A DNA stretch of 31,357 bases from a virus (taxonomy: Duplodnaviria > Heunggongvirae > Uroviricota > Caudoviricetes): IMG/VR virus record IMGVR_UViG_3300032046_004423, positions 1 to 31,357 of that record; one strand, 5' to 3'. Positions 12,432-28,799 of this stretch are shown here, in pieces; position 1 is the first letter of the stretch, and every line of letters begins with the position of its first letter. The notes beneath the pieces were generated by a model. The model was given only the letters and a program-made list of their open reading frames with translations, made no database searches and was not told where the DNA came from. Made by a program: the position numbers and the translations under genes.

Positions 12432-12542
12432 CCTCAACATCTAAATACTGGGTAGATAAGGAAGGAGAGAACATTTGGAGATGCAGTGAGACATGACTTT
12501 TGTTGTTACTACTTGTATCTACCCAGTGTTTAGTTGTTGAAG
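12432..12542 (-). repeat. Long intergenic inverted repeat (stem about 27 bp, loop 57 nt)
   Basis: CAACATCTAAATACTGGGTAGATA (12435-12458) versus TATCTACCCAGTGTTTAGTTGTTG (12516-12539): 22/24 complementary, extendable by 3 bp. Confidence 0.85.
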
Positions 12543-14370: not shown

Positions 14371-14655
14371 TCATTCATTGTTCTCACTTACAACTGGTAC
14401 AATAGACCATATAAGATCAGTACCAACTTTCTTATTAGTCTTGCCTAGATAGATATCACCACCTACAGTAAGGCTAATAAGTTCCGGTAATTTTGTTAAG
14501 GTTATAACTATCTTACTACTACTAAAGAAAGAGCCTACCCATTCTATTTGGTTATGGTTAGAAGACTCACAAGAACCTACTTGAACTGCATGAGCCTCAC
14601 CTTCCCAAATTTTACCTTCACCTTCTCCTAATATCCGTATTAGATAGGTCTGCAT
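14371..14655 (-). CDS. Hypothetical protein, 94 aa
   Basis: ORF track. Confidence 0.6.
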   Translation of the reverse strand: MQTYLIRILGEGEGKIWEGEAHAVQVGSCESSNHNQIEWVGSFFSSSKIVITLTKLPELISLTVGGDIYLGKTNKKVGTDLIWSIVPVVSENNE

Positions 14656-14739
14656 CTTTCCTTACTTCCCATCTCTTCTCGGTTTCCCAATCCTCAGCTT
14701 CGTGCTTTGGTTGGCATTTAACACAAACTAGTCTATAGT

Positions 14740-15198
14740 TTACTTGCTACCTCCAGGCTCGAATTCTTCGTGCCAGTGTTTTTTACTTTCAAGAAGGGCC
14801 TCAATATTATCGGGGTCTATTCCGTCATTTATGATAGCATACCTCACGAAGTAAGGAAGAGCATTTTCTTCAAACATTGCTCCATCAATGAACTCGTACA
14901 CCTCCCTGTCGTCTTCGGGCTGAAGTATACCACCGAATACATCGGCGATATTCCTAAACATTTGGATTGTTTCAGGTCTACTCCGAGCTATTAGCTCTAT
15001 TGCTGGTCCGATAGGTGTACTACCATCACAGAGCATAATGATATGCCTACCTTCAAACTCCAAAGTATACGTACCAATGACGTTGATACCGCCGTAGGAC
15101 TTAGTCTCTACCTCTATACCTTGTGTGCGTTCCAGTACCTTAACAATCTCGCTGGGCTGCCACCTATGGCTTAAAAATAATTTCGTATCAACTCCCAT
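14740..15198 (-). CDS. Hypothetical protein, 152 aa
   Basis: AAGGAGG SD; ORF track. Confidence 0.75.
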   Translation of the reverse strand: MGVDTKLFLSHRWQPSEIVKVLERTQGIEVETKSYGGINVIGTYTLEFEGRHIIMLCDGSTPIGPAIELIARSRPETIQMFRNIADVFGGILQPEDDREVYEFIDGAMFEENALPYFVRYAIINDGIDPDNIEALLESKKHWHEEFEPGGSK

Positions 15199-15199
15199 T

Positions 15200-15430
15200 T
15201 CAATCTACCTCCTTCCCAGTAGCACACTTCCAGTGTACTTCAACTGCAACAGCATTATAGGACTCCCCTAGCTTGCACTTTTCTTGTTCTTCTTTATCAT
15301 CACCGGGGCCTAGAGCTATAAGGGTAGTATAGTCACCTTCCTTAAAGAGTTTCCCACAGGCTGAGCAGCTTACTCCTATTGATGCGTCATTCTCTTTCTT
15401 TGGTCCGATTGGCCTAAGATTACCTACCAT
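15200..15430 (-). CDS. Zn-binding protein (CSAC...HWKC), 76 aa
   Basis: AGGAGG SD; CxxC...HxxC motif. Confidence 0.7.
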   Translation of the reverse strand: MVGNLRPIGPKKENDASIGVSCSACGKLFKEGDYTTLIALGPGDDKEEQEKCKLGESYNAVAVEVHWKCATGKEVD

Positions 15431-15439
15431 TTTACCCTC

Positions 15440-15806
15440 CTACAACTTTAGTCTAGATATATTAGCGTTAATCCAGAAACCATGCTCCGTAATTGTCTGA
15501 TTATCCTGATAGGTTCCCTTCCATATCCAACAGACTGAGGAGTACACAGGATTATCACCATGCCATAGCTCACGATATTTTTCATCAGGGTTATCCCAAT
15601 GAACCGGAACTACCCCCAACATACCACCCTCAATGGCAACTACTCTTACAGGTTTGAATCCCTCTACCTGTTCCCTTAAATAGTATGGAGTGTAGAGCAC
15701 TGCACATTGCACTGCCATCCTGCGGGGTTACAATGTCACCTACCCTAAGCTCCCTTTCTATTCTACCTGAACCTCCACAGGCCTCGCACCTTGATTTTAC
15801 TATCAT
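15440..15806 (-). pseudogene. CxxCxGxG plus SH3-like gene with an apparent +1 frameshift near 15724-15727
   Basis: ATG 15806 has an AAGGAGG SD (MIVKSRCEACGGSGRIERELRVGDIVT); the ORF-track frame 15440..15718 has no SD and continues an SH3-like sequence; removing one base in this stretch (e.g. from the C4 run) joins them. Confidence 0.55.
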
Positions 15807-15851
15807 TTACTACCTCCTTTTATTTAGATTCCTTGTATTCCTGAACTTAAC

Positions 15852-15983
15852 TTACTTCTCTATAAATTCGTAATCTATTCCTATTCCTATAATTAGTAGC
15901 GATGAAAGGAGCAGAAGCCAAGAGGAAAATACAATAGAAGCAGTAATTACAGCAATAGCTATGAGAATAATTATAACAAACAA
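15852..15983 (-). CDS. Hydrophobic membrane peptide, 43 aa
   Basis: Translated by hand; AAGGAGG SD and TTG start; MFVIIILIAIAVITASIVFSSWLLLLSSLLIIGIGIDYEFIEK. Confidence 0.6.
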   Translation of the reverse strand: MFVIIILIAIAVITASIVFSSWLLLLSSLLIIGIGIDYEFIEK

Positions 15984-15999
15984 TATACTTCCCTCCTTT

Positions 16000-16251
16000 T
16001 CATAGTCCTGCCTTGGACTCTCTTACTGCACGTGAGAGCTGTTTTAGTTCTATTGTAGCTCTAGCTACTACTAAGTTTCTCAAGCTTTTATCTTGAGGCT
16101 TACCTATTCCCTTATTACTACAGAACTGTATAAATCTAGTCTGTAGCTCTCTTCCAGAAGACTTACCATCTCGTATTGCTTCGAGAGTTTGGATTAGCCA
16201 TTCGTTAGTCAGTAACTTGACCCTTTCCTTCCTTTCCTCTTTTGTTCTCAT
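16000..16251 (-). CDS. Basic hypothetical protein, 83 aa
   Basis: ORF track. Confidence 0.65.
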   Translation of the reverse strand: MRTKEERKERVKLLTNEWLIQTLEAIRDGKSSGRELQTRFIQFCSNKGIGKPQDKSLRNLVVARATIELKQLSRAVRESKAGL

Positions 16252-16621
16252 TTGAGTCTACTTCGTAAATTTTCTTAAGCTTAGTAAGGGTCGCTTCCAT
16301 CTCCTTGCTAAATAGAGATTCTTTGAGAGTCTCATATAGCATTCTTCCTGCCCTGTCTTTTCTAAGCTTCAGATAGTCTAGGAGTTCAGTGTAGCTATCA
16401 GTAAGGGTTCTCATATCCCATTTAGTTAGAAGTCGAATGGGTTCTGGAGTTACCGCGATACTAAAGTACTGGCCCTTAGTATCAAAGAATTCTTTTCTTT
16501 CTGTGTTTGGGTCATTTCTCTGTATATTAGTTACCAAACTCTTAACTAGCTCCCAGGCCTCACTTTGGGAGACTTCTACCATAACTGAGTAGGGCCTTTT
16601 CTTAAAGATATCTATTCTCAC
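16205..16621 (-). CDS. Hypothetical protein, 138 aa
   Basis: AGGAGG SD; ORF track. Confidence 0.7.
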   Translation of the reverse strand: MRIDIFKKRPYSVMVEVSQSEAWELVKSLVTNIQRNDPNTERKEFFDTKGQYFSIAVTPEPIRLLTKWDMRTLTDSYTELLDYLKLRKDRAGRMLYETLKESLFSKEMEATLTKLKKIYEVDSNENKRGKEGKGQVTD

Positions 16622-16827
16622 TAGTTACCTCCTACCATATCTTCAAATATATGCTTTCTCTCTGGACTGGGTTCTATTACTAGAGTACCAGCCTTCATTG
16701 CTTCTAAAATCTCAAGCTTGGTAGTAAGTAGTTTACCATCTGAGTAATGCTTAGTACCAAGTGCTAACTCATTATCTATACTACCGATAATGAGTAGTGC
16801 TTTACAGTATGAATCTAAAACTCCCAT
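16621..16827 (-). CDS. Hypothetical protein, 68 aa
   Basis: ORF track; TAGATG junction. Confidence 0.6.
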   Translation of the reverse strand: MGVLDSYCKALLIIGSIDNELALGTKHYSDGKLLTTKLEILEAMKAGTLVIEPSPERKHIFEDMVGGN

Positions 16828-16834
16828 ACTAACC

Positions 16835-17077
16835 TTAACTAGGGCATCCCCTAAGTGTCCTTAAATCAAGCAGGTCAGGCTGGACTGTTGCAGGCTCAGT
16901 AAGGGGATTGTGGAGTATTATACTTTGCCAGCTTATATGTAAGTATCCTACCTTATTTCCATTTATCTCAATTAAGAGATGGTCATGGTCTTTCCTATAG
17001 TCTTCTTCTTTGGTTATTACTACTTTATCTCCCAAAAATCCCTTAAGTTCTATCATTTCCATTTTACTATCATCCAT
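16835..17077 (-). CDS. Hypothetical protein, 80 aa
   Basis: ORF track. Confidence 0.6.
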   Translation of the reverse strand: MDDSKMEMIELKGFLGDKVVITKEEDYRKDHDHLLIEINGNKVGYLHISWQSIILHNPLTEPATVQPDLLDLRTLRGCPS

Positions 17078-17276
17078 ACTTAACCTCCTTAACTATTACT
17101 AGGAAAAATCTAGGAACGGTTGGGGTTTTAACTCTAAGCTTAAGTTTAAGATCCCCTAACTTTTCTAGAACTTCAATAGTGGGTAGTTCATCGTAGATAT
17201 CATAGATGCCATCTCCATCTACTTTTCTAGTCCTGGAGAATATAGCATCTACTACCTGTTCCTTTAGATAATCCAT
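17070..17276 (-). CDS. Hypothetical protein, 68 aa
   Basis: AAGGAG SD; ORF track. Confidence 0.65.
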   Translation of the reverse strand: MDYLKEQVVDAIFSRTRKVDGDGIYDIYDELPTIEVLEKLGDLKLKLRVKTPTVPRFFLVIVKEVKYG

Positions 17277-17279
17277 AGC

Positions 17280-17432
17280 TTACTCCTTCTCCTCTTCAAC
17301 TTCTAGACTTACTATCGTTGCAGGTATTGGAAGTATTCTACTCCTAAGTATTGCCTTCTTGGCTTCCTCAGGTGTGAACCTATCAGAGACTGGGTTAGAT
17401 ATGAATTCCACTTTTACCCTTGGGATTCTCAT
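17280..17432 (-). CDS. Hypothetical protein, 50 aa (MRIPRVKVEFISNP...)
   Basis: Translated by hand; AGGAGG SD. Confidence 0.65.
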   Translation of the reverse strand: MRIPRVKVEFISNPVSDRFTPEEAKKAILRSRILPIPATIVSLEVEEEKE

Positions 17433-17450
17433 ATATGTTACCTCCTATCT

Positions 17451-17657
17451 TTAGTAGTTTACACACTCGAGTATTCTACCTTTTATCAGTGCTACTTTGA
17501 CATTGGGTCTAATACCTACCTTCCACCTGTAGAAGCACATAGCTTCGTTAGGGTTGTAAAACTGACTGATACCTTCTGGCTCTGTTACTAGATATCGGAA
17601 ATTTTTAGGTCTACTATCTTTTTCTGATGGGCGACTACCTTTCTTTTCTTCGGGCAT
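17451..17657 (-). CDS. Hypothetical protein, 68 aa
   Basis: ORF track. Confidence 0.55.
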   Translation of the reverse strand: MPEEKKGSRPSEKDSRPKNFRYLVTEPEGISQFYNPNEAMCFYRWKVGIRPNVKVALIKGRILECVNY

Positions 17658-17663
17658 TTGCGT

Positions 17664-17888
17664 TTAGTCCTCCCACTTGGTCTTCCACTCTTGGTAAGAA
17701 GCTAATGTATGTATAGTTGGGAATAAGAATAAGACCCAAATAGGAACAACCCCAATAGTAATTAAAACACTAGCAAAGAGTAGAACCATCAGTATACCTA
17801 CTAGTAAATCCTTTTCAGATTCCAGCCATCTAGGACACTCCTTGATTTCCTCTAAGTACCATCCCCAAAAACCTTCTTTGGTTTCCAC
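17664..17888 (-). CDS. Membrane protein, 74 aa
   Basis: Long hydrophobic stretch LLVGILMVLLFASVLITIGVVPIWVLFLFP. Confidence 0.65.
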   Translation of the reverse strand: METKEGFWGWYLEEIKECPRWLESEKDLLVGILMVLLFASVLITIGVVPIWVLFLFPTIHTLASYQEWKTKWED

Positions 17889-17928
17889 TTTACTTACTCC
17901 TTATCTCTTTCTTTATTTTCTTCTAACT

Positions 17929-18108
17929 TCAATCTTTCTTGGTAGCTTTTAAGACTTTTTGCCCTGTCCACTTCGCTATAAAGGCAGCATCTTCATTAGC
18001 CCTTATTGCAAATGCTAACTCATCATCAGTCATAGCAATCTTGCACTTCGGGCAGATGTAATAGCCACACGCAATGAGTTCTGTATCTTCGCAGTAGGGA
18101 CAAAGCAT
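17929..18108 (-). CDS. Zn-ribbon protein, 59 aa (CPYC...CPKC)
   Basis: Translated by hand; fills the gap. Confidence 0.65.
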   Translation of the reverse strand: MLCPYCEDTELIACGYYICPKCKIAMTDDELAFAIRANEDAAFIAKWTGQKVLKATKKD

Positions 18109-18128
18109 TCTATTTCCTTATCTTTGTG

Positions 18129-18329
18129 CTATTCCTTAACCTCAACCTCAATCTCATCCACATTACAAAGTACTACTGCTACTTCATCCTCTTCGGGGCT
18201 AAAGCAACCTGTTACAGCGCCAGCCGCGATACAATCTCGAACAAGCATCTCTGCCCTATCACTCGATACTGCATCAACAGAAACGTGAACTATAAATGTC
18301 TTTATAACTTCCATACTACCAGGACTCAC
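18129..18329 (-). CDS. Hypothetical protein, 66 aa
   Basis: ORF track. Confidence 0.55.
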   Translation of the reverse strand: MSPGSMEVIKTFIVHVSVDAVSSDRAEMLVRDCIAAGAVTGCFSPEEDEVAVVLCNVDEIEVEVKE

Positions 18330-18807
18330 TTACTAGTATATACCCTACTGTTCCGATTGTCACAATCCAGGAGATAATCATACTGATAAAAACTAGTACG
18401 AACATAGGATGTATAAAGTAGAAATAAACAGGAGCTATTTCTATTTCCCGAATTATCCCCCTTACATCATCCATCCCAGCCTGATATGCCACACCACTTC
18501 TGTCCATTAAGTTAATCGTCTCGGTACGATTTATAGCCTGACTGATAGTTTCTCTGTCCATATCCGCATTGTTCCACGGAGTCTTGAAGATTATTGCTGC
18601 ATATCCATTCTCATAGTGCCACTTACTGAGACCTGCGTCTGCTTGTTTCAGGTAATAAAGCATATCATCGGCCTGAGCTGCCACTTGTGCACGTTGCAGC
18701 CAAGCTCCTGTGTCACGGCTAATAAAATAGTCAGTTACTCCTACAATTACGGAGAGGACGACTGCCAGGATACCGAATAGTACCGCTATTGTTACTGCGA
18801 CTTTCAT
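18316..18807 (-). CDS. Two-TM membrane protein, paralogue of 9090..9668, 163 aa
   Basis: N- and C-terminal TM helices; shared internal motifs. Confidence 0.75.
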   Translation of the reverse strand: MKVAVTIAVLFGILAVVLSVIVGVTDYFISRDTGAWLQRAQVAAQADDMLYYLKQADAGLSKWHYENGYAAIIFKTPWNNADMDRETISQAINRTETINLMDRSGVAYQAGMDDVRGIIREIEIAPVYFYFIHPMFVLVFISMIISWIVTIGTVGYILVSESW

Positions 18808-19220
18808 TTTCCTCCTTTCCTGTTAGGCATAGCTTCATCTAAGTCCTTCTTGGTATTAGAACCCTGCCCAAATTCAACCACTCCTCTTACTCGGTTACAG
18901 TATTCTATAAACTCCTTAGCATCTTTGAGAGATTTACTAGAACATTGTTTTTCTAGTTGAGCAAGGGTTGGAAGGGGACAGTCAGGATGTAAGCTACTTA
19001 TCATAGAGGTTTTATATATTAGTTTTGGCTTCAAAGTGTCACCATCCTTTTGCAGAGGACAATAGACCTCCATTGGCTCACATTTTCCCCTTAATTCCAC
19101 TATTGCTATTGGGCAGTGTCCACAGCAGGTAAAGGCCAGTACTCTTATATCCTTGTCTAATTTAGGGTCCATAGTCACCTCTTTTTCCCTAAAATACCTA
19201 TCCTTTGCAATTCTATTCAT
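18804..19220 (-). CDS. Cys-rich hypothetical protein, 138 aa
   Basis: AAGGAGG SD; CCGHCP...C...YCP...DCPL. Confidence 0.7.
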   Translation of the reverse strand: MNRIAKDRYFREKEVTMDPKLDKDIRVLAFTCCGHCPIAIVELRGKCEPMEVYCPLQKDGDTLKPKLIYKTSMISSLHPDCPLPTLAQLEKQCSSKSLKDAKEFIEYCNRVRGVVEFGQGSNTKKDLDEAMPNRKGGK

Positions 19221-19232
19221 TAGGTTACCTCC

Positions 19233-19444
19233 TTATAAGTTTAACCTTATGTCTACTTCGGGGGATACAGGGCCTCCCTTGATGATTTCTACCAAAAATG
19301 TGTCAGTAAAGGGCAGCTTCTCATATTTGGGATAGACACTTACTAATGCTTTGACTACACCATCATCACCAATTAGTTTAAGGTGGACAGAGTCGGGCCT
19401 TCCTACCTGTATAGCAGGAGTTTTTCTACCTCTATTTTTTCCAT
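19233..19444 (-). pseudogene. PAIQVGRP family copy B with a 1-bp deletion near codon 9
   Basis: ATG 19444 (GGAGG SD, MEKIEVEK) aligns with copy A but has GG at 19417-19418 where copy A has GGG (12384-12386); the ORF track rescues the rest only via an upstream TTG. Confidence 0.65.
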
Positions 19445-19470
19445 TGTTCCCTCCCTCTCTCCTTTGGAAC

Positions 19471-19869
19471 CTACCGGCCTTCAAAAAACCTATGGATGAA
19501 GTCCTCGAAACTGGGTTCTCGGTCTGACCAAACTACAATGAAGCCTTTTCTAACCCCGATATTCTTACCCCACAGGTTATGCTCGACCTTCACAGAAAAC
19601 CAGAAGAGACGCTCTAGTATACCCATTCTATCTACGAGCTCCTCAAGCTTTGCATCATACTCTTCCTCGTTGTCTACTCGACCAAACTTTCTCTCTGCTG
19701 CTATCAGTGCCTCGCTCTTCATCGTATTGTTCCAGAGGGTGTAAAGCTTCCTTAAGTCTTCAGACATTACACCAGCCTCGTGGTCGTCTTTACTGAGTTC
19801 TGAGTTTGGTTCTAGAAACTCTTTAACTTCGCTTAGTTCAAGTGGTAATAGTTTAATAAATGTATTCAT
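19471..19869 (-). CDS. Hypothetical protein, 132 aa
   Basis: AAGGAG SD; ORF track. Confidence 0.7.
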   Translation of the reverse strand: MNTFIKLLPLELSEVKEFLEPNSELSKDDHEAGVMSEDLRKLYTLWNNTMKSEALIAAERKFGRVDNEEEYDAKLEELVDRMGILERLFWFSVKVEHNLWGKNIGVRKGFIVVWSDREPSFEDFIHRFFEGR

Positions 19870-19882
19870 CTTTGTCTCCTTC

Positions 19883-20341
19883 TTAGATAGTTTCTTTCCA
19901 TACAGTTAAGGGTGCTGGAGGTACTGGGGGTTTTATTCTTACCCACCATGTAGCCTCTAGCAGGAAGACATCATAACCTGTCGTTTTTGCAAGTCTCTCT
20001 GCTTCAGTTTTGGCTTCTAACTTATTCCAGTGTTGGTACTTGGGAACATCCTTTCCATCAACAAAGCACATCCAGAACTTCTTTCTGCCAGCTTTTTGGG
20101 GAGGAATATTGGGAAGAGTATCTTCTTCATCGTATGTGTAGAGTATCTCGTACTTTACCCTCTCTGGTAATCCATAAACTAGCTCATATGGGTTCCAGTG
20201 GTAGGTCTTTCCAGTATCCAAGTTAGTGCAGAGAGGCTCCCCCAACTGGTTCTTCTGGTTCGTTTTAATGTAGGTATTTCCATCCATACACTTCCTAAAC
20301 ATAGACCCTACACTTAACTGACTTAGTCTAACTTTATCCAT
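19883..20341 (-). CDS. Conserved phage hypothetical protein (FWM...P...H...EAERLA), 152 aa
   Basis: AGGAGG SD; motif recalled from phage hypothetical proteins. Confidence 0.7.
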   Translation of the reverse strand: MDKVRLSQLSVGSMFRKCMDGNTYIKTNQKNQLGEPLCTNLDTGKTYHWNPYELVYGLPERVKYEILYTYDEEDTLPNIPPQKAGRKKFWMCFVDGKDVPKYQHWNKLEAKTEAERLAKTTGYDVFLLEATWWVRIKPPVPPAPLTVWKETI

Positions 20342-20372
20342 TGTCCCTCCTATTATTGTTTATTTTCCTTTA

Positions 20373-20888
20373 CTAACTTAAATTGGGATTATACTCCTTG
20401 ATGATACTTCCAACTGGAATAACTAATCTGTTAGTGGCGTTATTGGTCTGTTCCCCCCAGCCAAAACTTGGAGGTGCTATCCACCAAGAGCAAGGTTTCC
20501 AAACGGGCTTACCTTTCTGGTAGCAGGGCAAAGTATTGTTAGTTTCATAGATATCACAGAAGCTTGCTTCTATGAACTCAAGATGGTATAGTCCTTCCGA
20601 TACTTCTCTGTAAACATAATAGACGGGTTCCTGCTGGAAATAACCACTTCCTAATATAAATGTTCCCCCAAGGTTCCGAGTAGTTTCTAATGAGGTAATG
20701 TTATATTGAGTAGTATACTTAATCTCAACTATACCAGTCCTACTGAGAGGCATGGCAGCTAGGAAGGAAACAAAGCCTATTATTAGGCATACAATACCAA
20801 TGTTAATTCCTTTTGTAAACTCCAAAAGATTAAGTACTATTATGAGAAGACCTACTGCTAAGAGGACAATCCCTAGTATAAATAACAT
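20373..20888 (-). CDS. Two-TM membrane protein (GTFILGSG family), 171 aa
   Basis: N-terminal TM hairpin followed by a soluble domain. Confidence 0.7.
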   Translation of the reverse strand: MLFILGIVLLAVGLLIIVLNLLEFTKGINIGIVCLIIGFVSFLAAMPLSRTGIVEIKYTTQYNITSLETTRNLGGTFILGSGYFQQEPVYYVYREVSEGLYHLEFIEASFCDIYETNNTLPCYQKGKPVWKPCSWWIAPPSFGWGEQTNNATNRLVIPVGSIIKEYNPNLS

Positions 20889-20891
20889 ACT

Positions 20892-21125
20892 TTACTCCTT
20901 CGGTCTTTGTACTAAATTCTTATAGAAGGTATTACCAAGCTCCCATTCAATAAGTTCTACCGAATCCCTTCTAAAGTCCATACCCAGAAAACCATGCTTT
21001 TGGTTGTGGCATTGCATCTCACCATCATCTCCATAGAAGTACTCACTAGGGCATCCGTGATGAAGCCATAGTAGTGTTCTTAGTACTAATTCTTCCCTGG
21101 GTATATCTGGAAAATCATCTGGCAT
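20892..21125 (-). CDS. Conserved phage hypothetical protein (LWLHHGC...YGDDGEMQC), 77 aa
   Basis: AAGGAGG SD; recognisable motif. Confidence 0.7.
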   Translation of the reverse strand: MPDDFPDIPREELVLRTLLWLHHGCPSEYFYGDDGEMQCHNQKHGFLGMDFRRDSVELIEWELGNTFYKNLVQRPKE

Positions 21126-21174
21126 CTAAACCTCCTTATCAATAAGATAGTCCAGTATAGGCTTAATTGGGAAG

Positions 21175-21453
21175 TCACAATATCTCCTTACTAATTACCC
21201 AATCTTTCTTTTTAGCTTGCCAACGAACTGTATCTTTAATACAAGGCACATCGCTTTCTGCTTCCTCTACTGCTTCCTTTATCCCTGTCTTGTAGCCTTC
21301 ATTGGCTTTATATTCTATCCAGCGATTTACAAGGAATTTTACAGCCTCCAATTTATTCTCAGTGGTTACCTGTGACTGGAAGGTTGTTCTGAGATTACAA
21401 AATAGTTTACGAATTTCTTTATCATCCATTGCTATTTTAGTTTTAGCTTCCAT
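21175..21453 (-). CDS. Hypothetical protein, 92 aa
   Basis: AAGGAGG SD; KTGIKEAVE...WQAKKKDWVI. Confidence 0.7.
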   Translation of the reverse strand: MEAKTKIAMDDKEIRKLFCNLRTTFQSQVTTENKLEAVKFLVNRWIEYKANEGYKTGIKEAVEEAESDVPCIKDTVRWQAKKKDWVISKEIL

Positions 21454-21473
21454 TGTCTCCTCCTTTATGTCTT

Positions 21474-21579
21474 ATTCTATAGTATTTGGGAGCAAGATGC
21501 CTAGGGAGGTTAATCCATAGAAAGGAGACAGCTCTGGCAAGGAGAGTCAACTGCATCTTGCCCCCAAGTACTATAGAAT
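21474..21579 (-). repeat. Long intergenic inverted repeat (27-bp stem, 52-nt loop)
   Basis: ATTCTATAGTATTTGGGAGCAAGATGC (21474-21500) versus GCATCTTGCCCCCAAGTACTATAGAAT (21553-21579): 25/27 Watson-Crick, and one of the remaining two is G-U. Confidence 0.9.
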
Positions 21580-21597
21580 CTTGACTCACTGTCAGTA

Positions 21598-21657
21598 CTA
21601 CCTTCCTTCACCGTTACCGGAAAATACTTTGACCTTAATACCCTTCTTGCACCTCAT
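21598..21657 (-). CDS. 19-aa micro-ORF or gene remnant (MRCKKGIKVKVFSGNGEGR)
   Basis: Translated by hand; ends just before the stem-loop. Confidence 0.3.
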   Translation of the reverse strand: MRCKKGIKVKVFSGNGEGR

Positions 21658-21665
21658 ACTTTTAC

Positions 21666-21842
21666 TTACTCTTCTTCTTCCTTCCACTCAAACTCAGCAC
21701 AGCAAATGCCACAGGTAGTTTGCCCTTGCATTTGGCCTATAGGAACAGTGCGTGAAAGATGTGCACCACACTTAGGGCAAGGGAATCTAACTTCCCTATG
21801 GGTCGGTTCCCTTGTTAACTTAGTTTTAATTATCTTAACCAT
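21666..21842 (-). CDS. Zn-ribbon protein, 58 aa (CPKC...CGIC)
   Basis: Translated by hand; TAATG junction with the upstream gene. Confidence 0.7.
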   Translation of the reverse strand: MVKIIKTKLTREPTHREVRFPCPKCGAHLSRTVPIGQMQGQTTCGICCAEFEWKEEEE

Positions 21843-22249
21843 TATTTTTCTTCCCCCAATTCTCCTTTCCTACACTCAAGGGGGTCACCCCACTTCTTAT
21901 TACACAGTGGGCAGTACTCAAACTGCTCGCACCAGCACCCATAGCATATTTTACTATCACCTATCCAAACTGTCCCGCTGCCTGGATGCTTCTTCCCACA
22001 ACTAGTAACTCCTTTACCCTCCACTACTATTTTTGGTGCTAAGTCTATTGTAGCTACCTTTACCTTTACTACATCATAGATTTCAATTTCTAGTAGTTCC
22101 TCAACTGGATGGGATATATGGAAGTTCTCTCTTACTCTAGGAATTTCCTCCGAGGCCTTTTCAGTTATATCCTTCAAGTTCTCTGCCTCAAGAACATTAT
22201 AGCATATGGTACTTTCACTTAACTTGGCCCAAAGCTCATAGAGTCTCAT
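21842..22249 (-). CDS. Hypothetical protein with a Cys-rich C-terminus, 135 aa
   Basis: AAGGAGG SD; ORF track. Confidence 0.7.
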   Translation of the reverse strand: MRLYELWAKLSESTICYNVLEAENLKDITEKASEEIPRVRENFHISHPVEELLEIEIYDVVKVKVATIDLAPKIVVEGKGVTSCGKKHPGSGTVWIGDSKICYGCWCEQFEYCPLCNKKWGDPLECRKGELGEEK

Positions 22250-22768
22250 TTAACCCTCCTTTACTATCTCAGCAATTCTATCTGCTAGCTGATTAATGCT
22301 TTCTGGGTCAGTAGGGTCTACATGGATTATATTTTCTTTGGGGATACTCTTAAGGACTTCCTCCATGGGGTCATACCCTCCATCAAGTTTACGTTGCCAC
22401 TCAGTTTGGGCACTCAGTATCTCCTTATCTAGGGCTTCTTCACTGGATATCTCGTAAATTCTCATTCCATGTCCCTCTGCCTGTTTTAACCAGGCATCAT
22501 AGCCATTCTTGTGAATATAGGCTAGGTGACTGACCACTGCTTGGTGCATTGCACCAGTCGTATCTTCCAACTCCCCATAAATTGCTTTATCCAGTGCCTT
22601 AGCATCCTTATTTTCTGCTATACATATCCCAGTTATATTTTGGTAGGATTTATAACCACTCCAATCAAAGGTTGGTTTATCCTTCAGAAACCTTATTCCA
22701 TTAAGAAGCATCTTTTGGCAGGCAGCTTCATAACTACTACCAAACCCACTGATATCAACTGTTTTCAC
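22250..22768 (-). CDS. Hypothetical protein, 172 aa
   Basis: GGAGG SD and GTG start. Confidence 0.75.
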   Translation of the reverse strand: MKTVDISGFGSSYEAACQKMLLNGIRFLKDKPTFDWSGYKSYQNITGICIAENKDAKALDKAIYGELEDTTGAMHQAVVSHLAYIHKNGYDAWLKQAEGHGMRIYEISSEEALDKEILSAQTEWQRKLDGGYDPMEEVLKSIPKENIIHVDPTDPESINQLADRIAEIVKEG

Positions 22769-22812
22769 TCAATCCTCCATAATACGGTCTCTTTTTTAGT
22801 TCCCTACTTATA

Positions 22813-22968
22813 TCACCCTATACTCTTGATGAAAAACTTACCATGAGTAGGGCAGATATAATCTGCTCCACCCATAGCCTTACCCAACCGTTTACATCCA
22901 CGACTACATTTTGGGCAGGGCTGATACTTAGGCATATTGGGTAATTCAGAACTACTTCCACTAGTCAT
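22813..22968 (-). CDS. Zn-binding peptide, 51 aa (CPKC...CPTH)
   Basis: Translated by hand; AAGGAGG SD. Confidence 0.65.
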   Translation of the reverse strand: MTSGSSSELPNMPKYQPCPKCSRGCKRLGKAMGGADYICPTHGKFFIKSIG

Positions 22969-23026
22969 AGAACTTTTGCCTCCTTTGGTATTTTAGCTAG
23001 GGTGATTTGATATCTTACTCCTCCTT

Positions 23027-23287
23027 TTAGAAATACCTTCTTTGGCTTACTGGCTTATCCATATCTGCAAGTATATTACTAGTTAGGGGATGTCTAAGAG
23101 CCTTAGGAGTTTCCTCTGATAGTTTTCTATAAGCTGGACAAACTTCCTTATTCCATATGCGCCAATACTCAGGACTCATACCATTCTCCTTCTTTTCAGC
23201 TTGTAGTTTGTTCCAATACTTACACCAGATAACATAAGCTGAAGGTTCATTTATCCAACCCCAAAGTCTTTTCAGCAGATTTTTCAT
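23027..23287 (-). CDS. Hypothetical protein, 86 aa
   Basis: AAGGGGAG SD; ORF track. Confidence 0.65.
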   Translation of the reverse strand: MKNLLKRLWGWINEPSAYVIWCKYWNKLQAEKKENGMSPEYWRIWNKEVCPAYRKLSEETPKALRHPLTSNILADMDKPVSQRRYF

Positions 23288-23301
23288 TCTCTCTCCCCTT
23301 A

Positions 23302-23895
23302 TTAGACTAAGCTTTCCCGCAAAGCCTTAATCCAAGCATTTCTCCCAGCTGTTCTCTCCACTTCCTTCTGGTACTCTTCAGTATGGTATTCAATATCTTT
23401 ATGGGCTTCTTTTTTCTTTTGGGATAACTAGTCTTTACCCGATAGTAGTTTGGCTGGGTTTTCTATGTAATAGTCTTCCATACCATCAAACTTAATTGAC
23501 CTTTCTATCTGTTGAACCATAAAGTCCTTAAACTCAATATGTTCTAGTGTGGGAGGCTGCCACTGTCTAACCTTCTCAAGCATACTCCTGTATTGGGCCA
23601 TAAGTTTACGGTCTTCCTTGATTTCTAGGACTATACGATTGGATTCCTGCCAGTATTCTACCCTAGCAAACCTTTCTGCTTCTGTTTCAGTCATATCTTT
23701 TAGTTTCTCAAGGGTTACCTCTGCTTTTCTTAACTCCTCTAAGTTCCAATCAGAAGGTTTGAACTCCTCAGGAATTGGCGTATCGGTTGAGTCATCTCGC
23801 ATAGTGATACAGGCTCCAAAAGCTCTAGCACAACTCATAGCGAACTGCGGGAATGTAATACCTTTTTTAATATCTTCTGTATATCCCGTTGGCAT
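23302..23895 (-). pseudogene. Conserved phage protein (MPTGYT family) interrupted by an in-frame TAG at 23428-23430
   Basis: The same frame continues LSQKKKEAHKDIEYHTEEYQKEVERTAGRNAWIKALRESLV to TAA 23302, directly before the next SD; 197 codons if read through. Confidence 0.7.
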
Positions 23896-23921
23896 TCTTC
23901 CTCCTACTGGTAAAATTTAAT

Positions 23922-24014
23922 TTGGGTGGAACAGGTTAGACCCGCAGCGGCCCTCAGTCGAGTCCATAACACCGCAAGCCTGCTCTTACAGGGCACGGCA
24001 TAACCCCAGCCCAA
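23922..24014 (-). ncRNA. Candidate compact structured RNA or cis-element
   Basis: About 60% GC intergenic island; closing stem TTGGG(C)TGG/CCACCCAA, plus AGCAGG/CCTGTT, GCGGT/GCCGC and GGACTC/GGGTCT. Confidence 0.45.
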
Positions 24015-24028
24015 TAGCATTTTTCTTT

Positions 24029-24466
24029 TCAGCTTTCATCTCCCAAAAACCAACTGGCATCAGGGTCTTTCTTTACCTTCTCAAACCAGTTAGTAAACTT
24101 TACCTTATCCTCCTCCTGTTCTGCTTCATACTTAGCAAGTTCAGGAGTATCCTTAGCAGTTGCGACTGGAATATTCTTAAAGTAGTTCATGGTCTTTCTT
24201 CTATTGAACCAGAGAGAATCCCAGAATATCCATCTTATCTTCCAGTATAAACTGCTAAACCAAATCCTTAGTCTATCCTTGACAATTAACCTAATTGGAG
24301 GAAAATGAGCAACCATCCTTTCTGTTGTCTTGGAGTAAGCAAAATGAGGGCAATGCCCATTCTCTAAACATAGATGGGAAGGGCAATTCCTTCCGCATGG
24401 ATAGTTGCCATTATCATCGGTACATCCGAAGCAGAAAGCTTCCATACATAAATTAGTCCAACTCAT
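24029..24466 (-). CDS. Cys-rich hypothetical protein, 145 aa
   Basis: N-terminal CMEAFCFGC...CGRNCPSHLC...HCPH. Confidence 0.7.
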   Translation of the reverse strand: MSWTNLCMEAFCFGCTDDNGNYPCGRNCPSHLCLENGHCPHFAYSKTTERMVAHFPPIRLIVKDRLRIWFSSLYWKIRWIFWDSLWFNRRKTMNYFKNIPVATAKDTPELAKYEAEQEEDKVKFTNWFEKVKKDPDASWFLGDES

Positions 24467-24486
24467 TATCTTCCCTTATTATAGTA

Positions 24487-24696
24487 CTATTGGGTGACTA
24501 CTTCCATTTCGTCCTCAAATATATATGCCTCATAGTCCTTAAACTTGACTACCCAACTCCTAGGCCATTCCCCTCTTGCTCTTTTGTGAAGTTGTGTAAT
24601 CACACCTTCCTCACCTTTAGAAAGAGGTCTACCTCCAGCTACTAGACCCCACCCAGGTAGGTCTTCAGTAAGTCTTATTGTATCACCTATTTTCAT
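24487..24696 (-). CDS. SH3/KOW-like small beta-barrel protein, 69 aa
   Basis: MKIGDTIRL...KGEEGVI...WVVKF...EDEMEVV pattern. Confidence 0.6.
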   Translation of the reverse strand: MKIGDTIRLTEDLPGWGLVAGGRPLSKGEEGVITQLHKRARGEWPRSWVVKFKDYEAYIFEDEMEVVTQ

Positions 24697-24999
24697 CTAG
24701 TCCTTTTTCTCCCTTTCTTCCCTTAGTAGGAGCTCGTTTTGATATACGAGTGCAATGTTAGAAAGAGCAGTAGTAGCTGAACTTCGTCCTACCACTTGGA
24801 TTCCTTCTGTCTCGGCCAGCCACAGATACTCATTTACTTTCTCGTATAACTGCTCCTCGGTTAAATTTCTAATATCTGGGTAGACTATCTTCTCTTGACT
24901 ATTAGTAGGGGTACAGCTTATAGTTCCAAATACCCCGCATAGTATTATGGCTATTAGTAGGGCAGAACCTACGAGTACTGCTTTCTTTATTCCATTCAT
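24697..24999 (-). CDS. Putative lipoprotein or exported protein, 100 aa
   Basis: Basic N-terminus, hydrophobic core, GTISC lipobox-like site. Confidence 0.55.
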   Translation of the reverse strand: MNGIKKAVLVGSALLIAIILCGVFGTISCTPTNSQEKIVYPDIRNLTEEQLYEKVNEYLWLAETEGIQVVGRSSATTALSNIALVYQNELLLREEREKKD

Positions 25000-25273
25000 C
25001 TACTCTTACTTCAACTGCTTTTACCTTCTTGAAGTTTGCCTTGAGCATCTTCCTAATTGTTTGTTGGCAACAAGCTGTTTCCCACATCCTTGCTGGTAAA
25101 CTCTGGTCAGTATCAAGAAATACACACCTGTTAGCTATAACTAACATAATTTGGCTAAGTAAGGACTCAAGAAATGGTGGGTAATTCACTAAGGCTGTAA
25201 ACTCAGCATCTCGGCAGTTATGTTTAGCCACATCCTCAATAGCAACTTTCAGTTCCTCATATTCTTTGCTCAC
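24902..25273 (-). CDS. Hypothetical protein, YEELKVAIE...IANRCVF family
   Basis: AAGGAG SD; long overlap with the next gene suggests the C-terminal tail may be run-on. Confidence 0.65.
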   Translation of the reverse strand: MSKEYEELKVAIEDVAKHNCRDAEFTALVNYPPFLESLLSQIMLVIANRCVFLDTDQSLPARMWETACCQQTIRKMLKANFKKVKAVEVRVDEWNKESSTRRFCPTNSHNTMRGIWNYKLYPY

Positions 25274-25290
25274 TATTCATACTCCTTTCC

Positions 25291-25722
25291 CTATTTTTTA
25301 TATTCTTTTAGCACTTTAACAGCTAGGAAACATACTGTTCCCAAAGGGGAATTAAATGAGACTCCTCTTCTAAAGTGGGGATGGAAGTAGGAGAAATCTA
25401 TCCTACCCGGTTTAATACCCTTTCCTATTCCCTCAACAAGTAATATTCTATACTCCCAGTGTGAACCAAATCCTAATGCATCCTCAAGTACCTCAAAGCA
25501 GAAGAGCCCAAGACTCCCTCTTACAGACCTAGTTACTTTTCCTATCCTATATATCCTAGCTGGAACTTCGTCTTCCCCACACCTTGCTAGAGTTAGCCTA
25601 TTTCCATTTATACAGGATGTAAAGGCTCCTTCCTTTCCTGAAGTCCTAACTACTTTGTATACCTTCTTGCTCATTTTAGTTTCTAATACCTTCTGGTAAG
25701 TATAGCATCTTCTCTTTACCAA
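25291..25722 (-). CDS. Basic hypothetical protein (start may be MSKKVYKVV)
   Basis: ORF track. Confidence 0.65.
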   Translation of the reverse strand: MVKRRCYTYQKVLETKMSKKVYKVVRTSGKEGAFTSCINGNRLTLARCGEDEVPARIYRIGKVTRSVRGSLGLFCFEVLEDALGFGSHWEYRILLVEGIGKGIKPGRIDFSYFHPHFRRGVSFNSPLGTVCFLAVKVLKEYKK

Positions 25723-26173
25723 TTATCCTATCCCAGGCAAACCATATTCTTATAGGACCTTGGCATAGTATCCCATCTATTGAGTTTATACAAAGTTGAA
25801 GGATAAAGCCCTTCTTTCCTCGACCATAGTATGGTTCATGCCTAAGATAAGGGTGGGAACCAATTACAGTTATTATTCTATGGCGGGATAGTTTATATTC
25901 AAAGATTATAGGAGTCAATATGCTTCCATACTTTTCCTTCATCCAATACCAAAGGGCTTCCCTCATACCTTCAGTAAAGGAATTCATTGCTTTACCTACT
26001 CCTCCCCTTCTTCTAGTTTCAGCTGAGTCAAGGATGGAGGCAGCGAGGGAAGGTTCGCCAGTCCTTCTATATTGCTCTAGTAGTTCCCTATCCGCCCTTA
26101 GGCACCGGGACGGCATTATACCTCGCCATCTACCATTTACAACTTGAAGTTGGGTTGGGTATCTTCCACTCAT
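25676..26173 (-). CDS. Hypothetical protein, possibly two fused genes (internal GGAGG SD before MNSFTEG)
   Basis: ORF track; internal SD and ATG. Confidence 0.55.
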   Translation of the reverse strand: MSGRYPTQLQVVNGRWRGIMPSRCLRADRELLEQYRRTGEPSLAASILDSAETRRRGGVGKAMNSFTEGMREALWYWMKEKYGSILTPIIFEYKLSRHRIITVIGSHPYLRHEPYYGRGKKGFILQLCINSIDGILCQGPIRIWFAWDRIIGKEKMLYLPEGIRN

Positions 26174-26691
26174 TTAATTGGGTGCTCCTCCAATTTCCAT
26201 TGGGGCTCCTCCAATATCCAATCTACCCCATCCCAAATCTTCCCATATAACTCCCTCATAACAAATGCGAGCCATAACTGTTCTAATGATACTTGACCTC
26301 CGTAAGACCAATCTAATCCTGAGCAATCATTGAGTACCCAGTCTTGGAAGTCATCTAGTATGACTACTATAATATTGGAACTTTCCTGCTCATCTTGGGA
26401 TAGTGATTTAAGATATATCTCCTGCAACTGGCTCTGTGTCGGTAGCCAAGTATAATCTACTGGTACACTGAACTCAACTAGTTGCCCCTTATAAGGATAT
26501 TGACTTATTCTTTCACTAGAACAGAATAAGATATCCCTCTCAATTTTACATACTAACCATTGCCCGAAGCTAATTCCATCCCTCTTATAAAACCAGTCTC
26601 CCACTTTTGGAGCCCAAAGGGCCTGTATCTCCTTTGCCTTCCCGAACATCTTTATGGTTTCACTATCTGTTATCATTTCCTTACTCCTCAA
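26170..26691 (-). CDS. Conserved phage hypothetical protein (WLPTQSQLQE...EQLWLAFVM...YGKIW), 173 aa
   Basis: Motif recalled from phage hypothetical proteins. Confidence 0.75.
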   Translation of the reverse strand: MRSKEMITDSETIKMFGKAKEIQALWAPKVGDWFYKRDGISFGQWLVCKIERDILFCSSERISQYPYKGQLVEFSVPVDYTWLPTQSQLQEIYLKSLSQDEQESSNIIVVILDDFQDWVLNDCSGLDWSYGGQVSLEQLWLAFVMRELYGKIWDGVDWILEEPQWKLEEHPIK

Positions 26692-26712
26692 CTACCCTAC
26701 CATCTGGGTATA

Positions 26713-27429
26713 TTAAGTAGATAGTCTTCCTGCTAGGTTTTTCAGCTCTTCAACAGAAGTAAGGCCCTTGCCCCGCATAACTTGTCCATTGTGTAGCCTG
26801 AGGATTCTTTCTTTCTCCTCTGCTTCCTTTTTGAGGGCACCGTTCAATTCTGAAATCGTCTCCTTGTAAACTCTCTCGTTTGCGTTCAAGGTTCCTACCT
26901 GGGAAGTAAGTCTATCATACTCTTTTATAGCCTCAACAACTCTAGTAAGTAAAGCGTCGGCTATACTTCCCGAGGTTACTTCTATTCTCGAAGCCTTCTT
27001 TAATGAGGACCTTACTGGTGTCTGGTCCCTTATACTCCTACGCCAACCGAAGACTGTGGTACGAGCTATTCCATACTGGTGTGCGAACTTTTCACAGCTA
27101 ATTTTGTGATTTTTCTCATACTCATCACTAAAGAATCTTCGTATCGGTACTAGTTCATTTTCGCTTAGCCTTCTTTTTTTACCTTCCTTAGTCCCGGGCG
27201 AAGACTCTCCCTGGCTTTCCCCTAGGACTGGAATATTAGCTTTGTCAGGTTTATCTATCAGTCTCTGCAAAGCTGGAACACCGATATGGTAGTGCTTCAT
27301 CGTAGCAATCCTACCATGAGCTTTATAGTATTCCACAATCTCAACTTTATTCTCGGAAATCCACTTACTACGGGCTGCGTAACTTAAAAAACCCCGTTTT
27401 TTTAGTCTCTCAAGTGGTGATTCTGCCAT
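26713..27429 (-). CDS. HTH DNA-binding protein with a C-terminal coiled coil, 238 aa
   Basis: AAGGAGG SD; SCEKFAHQYGIARTTVFGW is a classic HTH; a possible second HTH (RIATMKHYHIGVPALQRLI). Confidence 0.65.
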   Translation of the reverse strand: MAESPLERLKKRGFLSYAARSKWISENKVEIVEYYKAHGRIATMKHYHIGVPALQRLIDKPDKANIPVLGESQGESSPGTKEGKKRRLSENELVPIRRFFSDEYEKNHKISCEKFAHQYGIARTTVFGWRRSIRDQTPVRSSLKKASRIEVTSGSIADALLTRVVEAIKEYDRLTSQVGTLNANERVYKETISELNGALKKEAEEKERILRLHNGQVMRGKGLTSVEELKNLAGRLST

Positions 27430-27457
27430 CTTGTACCTCCTTACTAATTTTATTTAG

Positions 27458-27577
27458 TTACTCAGGTTTACTATTCTTTGCTGTGGTTTCTCTTAGGCAC
27501 CCTTCGCACAGCTTGAGTCCTAGTTTCCACTTCAACACCTTTTCAACCTTGCTTTTACACCTACTACAAGTTCTCAT
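27458..27577 (-). CDS. Zn-finger peptide, 39 aa (CSRC...CEGC)
   Basis: Translated by hand; AAGGAGG SD. Confidence 0.7.
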   Translation of the reverse strand: MRTCSRCKSKVEKVLKWKLGLKLCEGCLRETTAKNSKPE

Positions 27578-27604
27578 AATAGCTACCTCCTTTTCTCTTT
27601 TATT

Positions 27605-28190
27605 ACTCCTACTGGTTCGGGAACTCGGAGTGAGGGCTGGAGGCTGGGATTATTATTTGGTTCCTCCACTAAGTAAGTTCTACCTTACCTTCTATCACCC
27701 TCACTTCTTACCTTGACCAGGCTCGTACCTATTTTTATGCCTGAGCCTACCGCAGTAGCGGGACTCTGACCCCATCCAAATGTATGAGGCTGTAACTGGA
27801 CTTAGCCCAAACTTATCAGCCTGCTAGTGCAGTGTTCACTTTCTGACCACCTGTCTCTACGACCATTAGGGGTGTTGGTAGTGAACATACTCGTTTGGTA
27901 CTCCAAATGCCCCTTGCTTCTCTCTCGTGTACTAGCAGACTTATGCCAGCCCAAGGACTTCCACCTTGGGACGGGGAGCTTAGTAGCGAGGACTACTCGC
28001 AGACTTTTACTGCGTCAATTTATCGCCCTGTGTCCTAGGTTGTCGTTTTTATACAGGTTCGCCTCGCTCTGATGGCTCAAAGGCTTAGTGGTAAGCTCCA
28101 CTCGGATGACAACCACATCTTGCTCTCCCTAACCAATTTCCCAGCGTCTTTAATGAGAATTTCGCCACTGGCAATCTTATTCAGTTGTTA
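27605..28190 (-). ncRNA. Candidate large structured ncRNA (about 590 nt), family unassigned
   Basis: No sense-strand ORF of 60 aa or more in a gene-dense operon; about 48% GC by hand count versus about 39% in flanks; more than 10 helices of 5-10 bp, including crossing pairs; ends approximate. Confidence 0.65.
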
Positions 28191-28195
28191 ATGTA

Positions 28196-28408
28196 CTAAC
28201 TTTTTCTAGCTTTAACTAGTCCATTTCTTACTAGCTGGTAAGGTTGAAGATTTTGAGGATGCCTTCTGAGGAATTCTGTTGCACCATCCATCATAGCACT
28301 ATTGTAACCGGATGACTCAACCTCAATTTCTTCTCGTATATTAAGGTAGTGAATATGAACAATATACTTACTCAGGTTTTTTATTTCCTTTCTTATCTTT
28401 AACCTCAA
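28196..28408 (-). CDS. Hypothetical protein, 58-70 aa (start uncertain)
   Basis: ORF track; the core YIVHI...IEVESSGYNSA resembles 29127. Confidence 0.55.
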   Translation of the reverse strand: MRLKIRKEIKNLSKYIVHIHYLNIREEIEVESSGYNSAMMDGATEFLRRHPQNLQPYQLVRNGLVKARKS

Positions 28409-28499
28409 CTAACCAAGTCGGAAAATGTTTCCTTGCTGAATTGGCTATCTCCTCAGCATCCTCATCCTTCACTGTTACCTTCATAGTAATCGTCTTCAC
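28368..28499 (-). CDS. Small protein, 43 aa (MKTITMKVTVKDEDAEEIA...)
   Basis: Translated by hand; GGAGGAGG SD; GTGA overlap. Confidence 0.6.
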   Translation of the reverse strand: MKTITMKVTVKDEDAEEIANSARKHFPTWLVEVKDKKGNKKPE

Positions 28500-28603: not shown

Positions 28604-28671
28604 TTTACTTGCCCTCCTTTGCACTTACACTTGAGTTGGTCATCTTTCCGACTCAATTTTAATCATACCAT

Positions 28672-28792: not shown

Positions 28793-28799
28793 ATGATTA

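Follow-up and report, generated by a model that had tools for sequence, protein, structure and literature searches.

Long intergenic hairpins with anti-SD loops in an uncultured sediment virus, candidate cis-acting processing or stability elements

What might a hairpin of 106 bases, whose loop carries anti-SD motifs on the transcribed strand, be doing in the spacer between two small viral genes? The question is raised by the hairpin at 21474-21579 of a window of 31,357 nucleotides, which is the left 31.4 kb of the genome of an uncultured sediment virus (109,607 bp in a single contig, 40.7% G+C). A preliminary description of the window had seen in it a possible class of RNAs that block the translation of several targets. 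Genes of this virus run on the minus strand from ~28.7 to 0.2 kb, on the plus strand from 28.9 to ~70 kb, and on the minus strand again beyond. The focal hairpin occupies a spacer of 212 nt between genes of 58 and 92 codons, both on the minus strand (Table 1). The hairpin-flanking genes are ORFans, and a search for homologues of the downstream 92-aa protein among 5.8 billion proteins returned none.

The focal hairpin is real and far beyond chance. Repeat finding and a genome-wide scan agree on a 27-position stem and a 52-nt loop, and the loop sequence and the motifs CTCTCCTT, TCTCCTTT and CCTCCCT are exactly as first described. The arms are complementary at 25 of their 27 nt; on the transcribed (minus) strand the stem has 25 Watson-Crick pairs, one G-U and one C-A, which makes 26 pairs as RNA. 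The segment 21470-21583 of that strand folds at -48.8 kcal/mol, versus -26.3 +/- 3.4 for its shuffles (z = -6.6, 0/200), and the plus strand folds equally well (-51.3). By our own estimate, a 25/27 inverted repeat with a loop of less than 120 nt is expected ~1e-6 times per 110 kb. The element as a whole is 58% pyrimidine and has the small size (106 bp in total), the terminal inverted repeats (27-nt arms) and the absence of coding capacity expected of a MITE- or Correia-like mobile element. Indeed, a coding reading was rejected: the 48-codon and 33-codon ORFs that run across it are not kept in a second copy at 53.9 kb, in which three indels (2, 7 and 2 nt) and an ATG-TAG break the spanning frame. 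No tRNA or tmRNA was found, and an integron attC site was discarded, the R''/R' core sites (RYYYAAC ... GTTRRRY) being absent from the arms. In Rfam, the window has no match at the gathering score, and the loci of the 21.5-, 33- and 53.9-kb elements have none at E <= 1.

Table 1. Features of the focal locus, long hairpins of the source genome and hairpins of related viruses
Feature	Position	Strand	Remarks
Upstream gene	21666..21842	-	58 aa, zinc-ribbon-like; stop 86 nt before the hairpin
5' arm	21553..21579	-	27 nt, pairs with 21474-21500
Loop	21501..21552	-	52 nt, three anti-SD motifs; last part conserved in the 53849-53953 copy
Anti-SD motif 1, CUCUCCUU	21539..21546	-	not conserved in the second copy
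Anti-SD motif 2, UCUCCUUU	21521..21528	-	aligned with GCCUCC of the second copy
Anti-SD motif 3, CCUCCCU	21503..21509	-	within the conserved block GGAUUAACCUCCCUAG
3' arm	21474..21500	-	ends 7 nt upstream of the next gene's SD
SD of the 92-codon gene, AAAGGAGGAG	21457..21466	-	predicted unpaired (P 0.94) with the hairpin formed
Downstream gene	21175..21453	-	92 aa, ORFan
Long hairpin (stem-loop 1)	12432..12542	-	27-position arms unrelated in sequence to the focal ones; 57-nt loop ending in UCUCUCCUUCCU
Long hairpin (focal)	21474..21579	-	
Long hairpin	32973..33108		
Long hairpin	53849..53953	+	
G1 hairpin			28 bp, 46-nt loop, CCUCCC on the sense strand
G2 hairpin			24 bp, SD and anti-SD in the arms
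L098 hairpins	16034-16220, 7036-7219 of L098		stems of 27-29 bp, structured cargo of 133 and 126 nt

The element does not look like a gene for a separate RNA, as had been proposed. The single strong promoter, TTGACA-17-TGnTATGAT, lies at 28700-28672 on the minus strand and drives an operon of ~28 kb in which the hairpin is embedded, and no outstanding promoter or terminator was found in the hairpin or beside it; the only promoter-like sequence inside it is a 9/12 consensus match at 21503-21474, which is not kept in the 53.9-kb copy. With a duplex of at least ~20 bp in the intergenic region of a co-directional operon and no terminator upstream, the hairpin is probably transcribed with its neighbors. 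The promoter-early stem-loops (PeSL) of T4-type phages, reportedly described by Arbiol et al. in 2010, are said to be repeated stem-loop modules bordering small accessory genes in hyperplastic early regions. These have an early promoter and short stems, whereas no promoter was found for our element, and we set this reading aside: there is no early promoter joined to the stem-loop, the lone 9/12 match being unconserved. Also, the UCCC-motif sRNAs of Staphylococcus, RsaE/RoxS and the actinobacterial 6C RNA show that loop motifs of the CCUCC or UCCC type can pair with SDs; anti-SD sRNAs are independent transcripts with short stems and their own promoter and terminator, unlike the focal element, which has none of these and no Rfam match. 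A free-standing translation-blocking RNA is therefore not supported: nothing that we found shows it.

Scanning the 109.6-kb genome for long stems, as the preliminary description had advised, yields only four inverted repeats whose arms span 27-33 positions, 24-29 of these being complementary, around loops of 51-70 nt. All four have anti-SD loops, and the next-best inverted repeat has arms of 17 nt. The observation thus extends solidly to a class of four members, one of which is a true paralogue of the focal hairpin. All four are intergenic in co-directional operons, without overlap with ORFs of at least 80 aa. The likeness to stem-loop 1 that had been noticed holds (27-position arms, a 57-nt loop and the common CTCTCCTT), and this 12.4-kb hairpin has no sequence relative. 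At its 5' foot, at 12544-12550 of the window, stands an orphan AAGGAGG with no start codon, reminiscent of the STAB-SD mRNA stabilisers of Bacillus. Mini-ORFs with strong SDs, perhaps leader peptides or remnants of lost genes, are found directly after the 53.9-kb hairpin (11 codons, 53969-54004) and directly before the 33-kb one (9 codons, 32942-32971). The arms of the 33-kb hairpin recur outside the window, at 31731-31764 and 32044-32069, where a closing stem of ~20 bp surrounds a GC-rich structured RNA of 290 nt (31731-32069, or L005:332-670; z = -3.3) for which a search of Rfam gave no match. Since the same arms close such different interiors, the long stems seem to behave as closing stalks around a variable cargo. 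The 290-nt RNA lies within an ORF-free leader, and the contig of the closest relative (L002) ends exactly at this arm.

The 53.9-kb copy is a true homologue of the focal element (72% identity over 110 nt, E = 3e-9) and, although it belongs to a plus-strand operon, its orientation relative to transcription is identical. No duplicated gene-plus-hairpin cassette was found, the proteins that flank the hairpins being unrelated to one another. Identity amounts to 21/26 columns in the 5' arm, 23/28 in the 3' arm and 33/54 in the loop, where the last 18 columns (13 identical) are better kept than the rest (20/36) and define a conserved block, GG(A)UUAACCUCCyUAG. The expectation that the loop motifs would be conserved is thus borne out for motifs 2 and 3, which align between the copies, and fails for motif 1, which is not kept. 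Four of 24 stem pairs vary between the copies, three of them on one side only and one in a compensatory manner (G-C to A-U); a further change of the top pair from C-G to U-A depends on the alignment. With two sequences such covariation is statistically weak: the four stem positions that differ in non-Watson-Crick status are three G-U and one C-A in the sense strand (P ~0.3 by our count). A covariance model of the two copies, another check advised at the outset, finds just those two in the genome (sense 134-139 bits, antisense 43-48) and none in the relatives G001 and G002. Fold energies prefer the sense strand at 53.9 kb (-49.0 vs -40.5), the antisense strand at 12.4 kb (-37.4 vs -43.3) and neither in the other two elements. 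RNA-level selection on the stems is not shown by these energies, and selection on structure, which had been argued from the differing arms, does not follow from one compensatory pair between homologues and from stems of which two in four fold as well in antisense.

The loops tell a more consistent story, as CUCC-type anti-SD motifs are present on the sense strand of all four. The four loops, 230 nt in total, contain eight CTCC where the genome sense strand would predict 0.53, a ~15-fold enrichment (Poisson P ~1e-7; 0/20,000 loop shuffles) from loops that are not fully independent, two of them being homologous; GGAG is absent from the same strand of the four loops. In the genome sense strand at large it is CTCC that is depleted (2.3 per kb vs 8.5 per kb for GGAG). 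The anti-SD content that was first described is hence strand-specific and common to the whole set. The three CUCC motifs of the focal loop are C-rich, complementary to SDs and partly accessible, with P unpaired of 0.29-0.56 in the predicted ensemble, and of up to 0.73 in the other elements. No known hairpin class explains such a strand-specific, 16S-tail-like load in every loop. As for its origin, a 12-mer search of the rest of the genome for a source of the loop, with one mismatch allowed, gave generic ribosome-binding site matches only. In ~1.05 Mb of unrelated phage loci (fetched by their helicase) there are ten comparable inverted repeats, and one of them has a sense CTCC loop. This case, L023:2185-2284, comes from an unrelated phage with a helicase 29% identical and consists of a 32-bp stem between genes with a 36-nt loop carrying CUCCCCCUCCUUU on the sense strand; the anti-SD-loop design may therefore recur outside the lineage.

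The targets of these motifs, if they have any, are harder to name. Read on the opposite strand, the loops had been likened to SD-plus-spacer segments, and they do match real viral ribosome-binding sites: duplexes between loops and predicted viral sites are 2-4 kcal/mol better than those of shuffled loops, a preference that follows trivially from the loop motifs. Loops that bind viral sites in this way would hit the virus itself, and they match its ribosome-binding sites as well as any others, which leaves little of the trans-acting, host-selective blocker that had been proposed. The supposed preference for host-type AAGGAGA sites falls for a similar reason: among 198 predicted viral genes, the SD is of the GGAGG type in 99 and of the GGAGA type in 28, and UCUCC also pairs with GGAGG through a U-G wobble. 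Motif 2 contains CUCCUUUCUA, which we take to be the Firmicute-type 16S rRNA tail, and GGUUAACCUCCUUA in the 53.9-kb copy matches at 12 of 14 positions GGAUCACCUCCUUA, presumably the 3' tail of 16S rRNA. The conserved block also complements typical viral ribosome-binding sites exactly, as with TAAGGAGGTTAA at 17080; a mimic of 16S rRNA and an inverted ribosome-binding site cannot be told apart from sequence.

All this happens close to the SD of a downstream gene. In three of the four hairpins the 3' arm ends 5-8 nt before an SD of the AGGAGG type (7-8 nt in stem-loop 1), and in the 33-kb hairpin the stem base itself contains the SD. The fold prediction for the closed hairpin leaves the SD open (P unpaired 0.74-0.99); with the 5' arm removed, the loop CUCC masks it in three of four elements in the predicted minimum-free-energy fold (P unpaired 0.00-0.13). 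Such masking after loss of the 5' arm would fit a fail-safe mask, although any RNA with both motifs would do likewise. Ranked among 199 sites, the cognate SD comes 43rd for the focal loop; the remaining loops place theirs 101st, 91st and 128th. Also, a 27-bp helix separates the SD, at its foot, from the loop, at its top, so that the two could pair only if the stem opened. A cis pseudoknot with the downstream SD, formerly offered as an alternative, finds no favor in this rank and in this position at the opposite end of the helix.

How old and how widespread are these hairpins? Conservation beyond the source genome, and an orthologous or empty site, were found in none of the collections and relatives searched. 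The interval 20000-23000 gave nothing in blastn against 50,697 phage records, and the arm patterns had no true match in IMG/VR, JGI metagenomes and 185,579 GTDB species genomes; the sole metagenome match (L001) was rejected, being a perfect palindrome of high GC that is unrelated to the arms, stands at the end of a contig and is probably an artefact of assembly. The proteins flanking the hairpin have no loci in IMG/VR, and of nine such proteins sought in four relatives none was present. In the nearest relatives (helicase 90% and 75% identical) ~4 kb separate the divergent promoter region from the helicase, versus 23 kb here; this early minus-strand region, 5600-28400 of the window, is filled with small ORFan genes. 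All four hairpins lie in accessory gene insertions missing from relatives: by tblastx, the 12.4-kb hairpin is in a 2-kb insertion, the focal one in a stretch of ~13 kb without counterpart, and the family-B pair (that of the 33-kb arms) in a 1.8-kb insertion adjoining a RusA gene. A second related virus from the same sample skips 14344-29119. The relatives have one or two hairpins each, non-homologous to ours, of the same build and in other intergenic places (Table 1), which makes this kind of hairpin a low-copy, fast-changing feature of the lineage. The cargo of the L098 hairpins contains no CUCC. Contigs from four sediment runs represent the same virus, near-identical and at low depth, and bring no informative variation in the hairpin. 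Three more sediment metagenomes, which stem from other studies, also contain near-identical, low-depth contigs in the 10500-30000 part of the window; one of these contigs has a 12-nt insertion after 18336, and positions 27984-28046 vary among the near-identical sediment contigs.

The explanation that we tentatively prefer is that of a dispersed, co-transcribed hairpin repeat of Correia-like architecture acting in cis as an RNase III-type processing or stability element, with the loop anti-SD motifs serving as a fail-safe mask of the SD or as the business end of an excised hairpin RNA. The family would comprise arms of 25-33 bp around an interior of 51-70 nt, or 290 nt once, placed in intergenic spacers and mostly in accessory insertions. 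The focal member would be transcribed within a polycistronic early mRNA from the promoter near 28.7 kb, and its 27-bp duplex would be long and regular enough for any bacterial RNase III, or else would block exonucleases, so that the message may be split or stabilised just upstream of the next gene, whose SD would stay free 7 nt past the stem. A closed stem would keep the loop motifs off that SD, and masking would only come with the loss of the 5' arm, which would silence decapitated transcripts; alternatively, the motifs may leave with the excised upper hairpin. In this scenario the hairpin would have spread as a small repeat and would decide what becomes of the accessory message downstream of it. 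If so, hairpins of this kind could explain how operons of 28 kb and 40 kb, with no obvious internal promoters, set the expression of individual accessory genes, and would carry the RNase III logic of Correia elements and of T7 over to an uncultivated lineage of viruses. The loop motifs may then guard the downstream ribosome-binding site as a safety catch, or form the surface by which an excised regulatory RNA acts, and either role would bear on how genomes with strong SDs tolerate or use anti-SD sequences within mRNA.

There are good precedents for parts of this proposal. Duplex RNA is a substrate of RNase III from about two helical turns upwards, and intercistronic RNase III hairpins are known in T7. 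The sites R0.3-R1.3 of T7 and those of the Bacillus phages SP82 and SPO1 have shorter stems, internal bubbles and small loops. Our hairpin resembles them in that it lies between genes of a long early operon, just upstream of the next ribosome-binding site, with several related copies in the genome and a stem long enough for RNase III; it differs in its nearly perfect 27-bp stem and its 52-nt anti-SD-rich loop. Cleavage of the phage sites is experimentally shown. A passage of PMC4838370 attributes intercistronic RNase III hairpins to SP82 (citing Panganiban and Whiteley 1983). The short form of the Correia elements of Neisseria (CREE or nemis) measures 104-108 bp with 26-bp terminal inverted repeats, is intergenic and often 5' of genes, and is co-transcribed, its hairpin in mRNA being a substrate that RNase III binds or cuts (PMC2649163). 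The focal element is like it in its 106 bp, its 27-position arms, its intergenic position 5' of a gene and its dispersed second copy. However, Correia elements exceed 100 copies per genome, duplicate a TA target, bind IHF, share a conserved core and can give rise to promoters, while ours has two copies in a viral genome, an anti-SD-loaded loop, and no target duplication, promoter or sequence likeness. Other points weigh against a processing hairpin. An RNase III gene was sought in the viral genome and none is encoded there. Two of the four stems fold as well or better in antisense, so a palindrome acting at the DNA level is possible. Also, a plain processing signal needs no loop of 52 nt, and a processing or stability mechanism alone leaves the anti-SD enrichment of the loops unexplained. 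Elsewhere in the genome, at 75563-75700 on the minus strand, a frame interrupted by one TAG gives a sub-threshold match to a dsRNA-binding domain (dsrm, 15.7 bits, E = 0.002).

The arms could instead be the terminal inverted repeats of a non-autonomous mobile element, a selfish or neutral MITE-like DNA palindrome of the Correia, RUP or ERIC type lodged in intergenic spacers, in which case any effect on RNA would be incidental and the loop motifs would be relics of inverted ribosome-binding sites. We consider this unlikely, even if it accommodates much of the data: the size and build equal those of short Correia elements (PMC2649163), the two dispersed copies have unrelated flanking genes, the arms are better conserved than the interior and those of family B enclose 70 or 290 nt, the elements sit in accessory insertions and such hairpins come and go between relatives, the stems are equally good on either strand, and the antisense loops resemble SD-plus-spacer pieces that match real viral sites. 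What it does not predict is that three unrelated arm families, inserted at random, should share their size, their anti-SD bias (8 CTCC, 0 GGAG) and their distance to the SD. Target-site duplication is inconsistent as well, with AAG flanking the 21.5-kb copy and nothing comparable at 53.9 kb; the copies are only two, their arms are unmatched in the metagenome and species-genome collections, no empty site was found, and a search of the genome for DDE_3, Y1 and TnpB-type transposases returned none. Because the anti-SD load of the loops is unexplained by the processing mechanism alone, a reading in which the hairpin is excised and acts in trans stays alive, at a low probability. RNase III or another enzyme would release the upper stem and loop, ~80 nt, and its 16S-tail-like motifs would pair with SDs and damp translation, for host shut-off or viral timing. 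Stems would then be processing stalks and loops the product, that is, hairpin RNAs cut from polycistronic mRNAs that mimic the 16S 3' tail (ACCUCCUU with natural flanks), a bold proposal to which we give little credence. Such RNAs could mask SDs in general or act as decoys that divert a 16S-tail-recognising factor, and might be linked to the RNA toolkit of the virus itself, such as its Ro60; if real, these anti-SD RNAs, encoded by a virus and derived from mRNA, would form a new class. The sense-strand enrichment, the block kept between copies, the near match of the 53.9-kb block to the presumed 16S tail, the partly unpaired motifs, the better binding of ribosome-binding sites than by shuffled loops and the existence of a known class of SD-targeting sRNAs with C-rich loops all speak for it. 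It is weakened by the lack of a promoter or terminator of its own in our searches, by the very strong SDs of the virus, which would be hit at least as well, by motif 1 not being conserved in the second copy, by the L098 cargo free of CUCC, and by a stoichiometry that seems doubtful, with one RNA per mRNA facing hundreds of SDs.

The predicted masking of the SD in three of four elements also invites the idea of a translational switch in cis, in which the 5' arm is an anti-anti-SD that leaves the SD free when paired and lets the loop mask it once a terminating ribosome, 5'-to-3' decay or cleavage has occupied or removed that arm. In three elements the distance from the upstream stop codon to the stem is 1-13 nt, which would suit such a switch; in the focal element, however, it is 86 nt, a terminating ribosome would probably open only ~10 bp, and a 27-bp stem (~-40 kcal/mol) always wins at equilibrium. 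Together with the generic complementarity to the cognate SD (ranks 43 to 128 of 199) and the fact that CUCC and GGAG in any one RNA would give the same masking, this makes the switch rather improbable. A still more remote candidate, which we consider very improbable, is a Y-RNA-like ligand of a viral Ro60, suggested by the long end-to-end stem and the large pyrimidine-rich loop. A long stem and a large internal loop characterise Y RNAs, which measure 80-130 nt and are encoded on the strand of the Ro60 gene, no more than 4 kb from it (PMC4201824), and there is a documented case of a phage Ro60 accompanied by Y-like RNAs that the phage itself encodes (PMC12135203). Our virus has a Ro60 orthologue at 49406-50707 on the plus strand (TROVE 57 bits, plus the Ro60 vWA domain), 3.1 kb upstream of the homologous copy at 53849 and on its strand, within the distance just given; a search of the surroundings of this gene with Rfam gave no canonical Y RNA at E <= 5. 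The focal element is like Y RNAs and YrlA in its size, its long closing stem, its large loop and this homologous copy near Ro60. Unlike them, it has no tRNA-like module, bulged helix or Rfam match, the defining CGAA or GNCGAA(N)G Ro60-binding motif is absent from all four elements, and the focal copy lies 28 kb from Ro60 in the opposite operon, far outside the 4-kb same-strand range.

A better candidate stands directly upstream of Ro60, at ~48530-48592, where GGACGAAUG in a stem-bulge-stem fits the GNCGAA(N)G Ro-binding motif, which makes this element a likely Y-RNA-like partner of Ro60; Rfam does not find it. The 0.9 kb upstream of the gene (48528-49406) that holds this 64-nt stem-bulge-stem is ORF-poor and structured. 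In L098, a virus with a helicase 57% identical, the hairpin at 16034-16220 has two CGAA motifs, with an SD 3 nt after it, and is possibly a Y-like RNA, and an intergenic gap of the early operon carries a type II hammerhead ribozyme (14950-15014, plus strand; 38.2 bits, gathering score 37). Another relative, L100 (helicase 60% identical), encodes a Ro60 (TROVE plus vWA_Ro60) and a nucleotidyltransferase of the RlaP family (L100:1-1185 and 12312-13316); genes for RNA repair and quality control are recurrent in the lineage.
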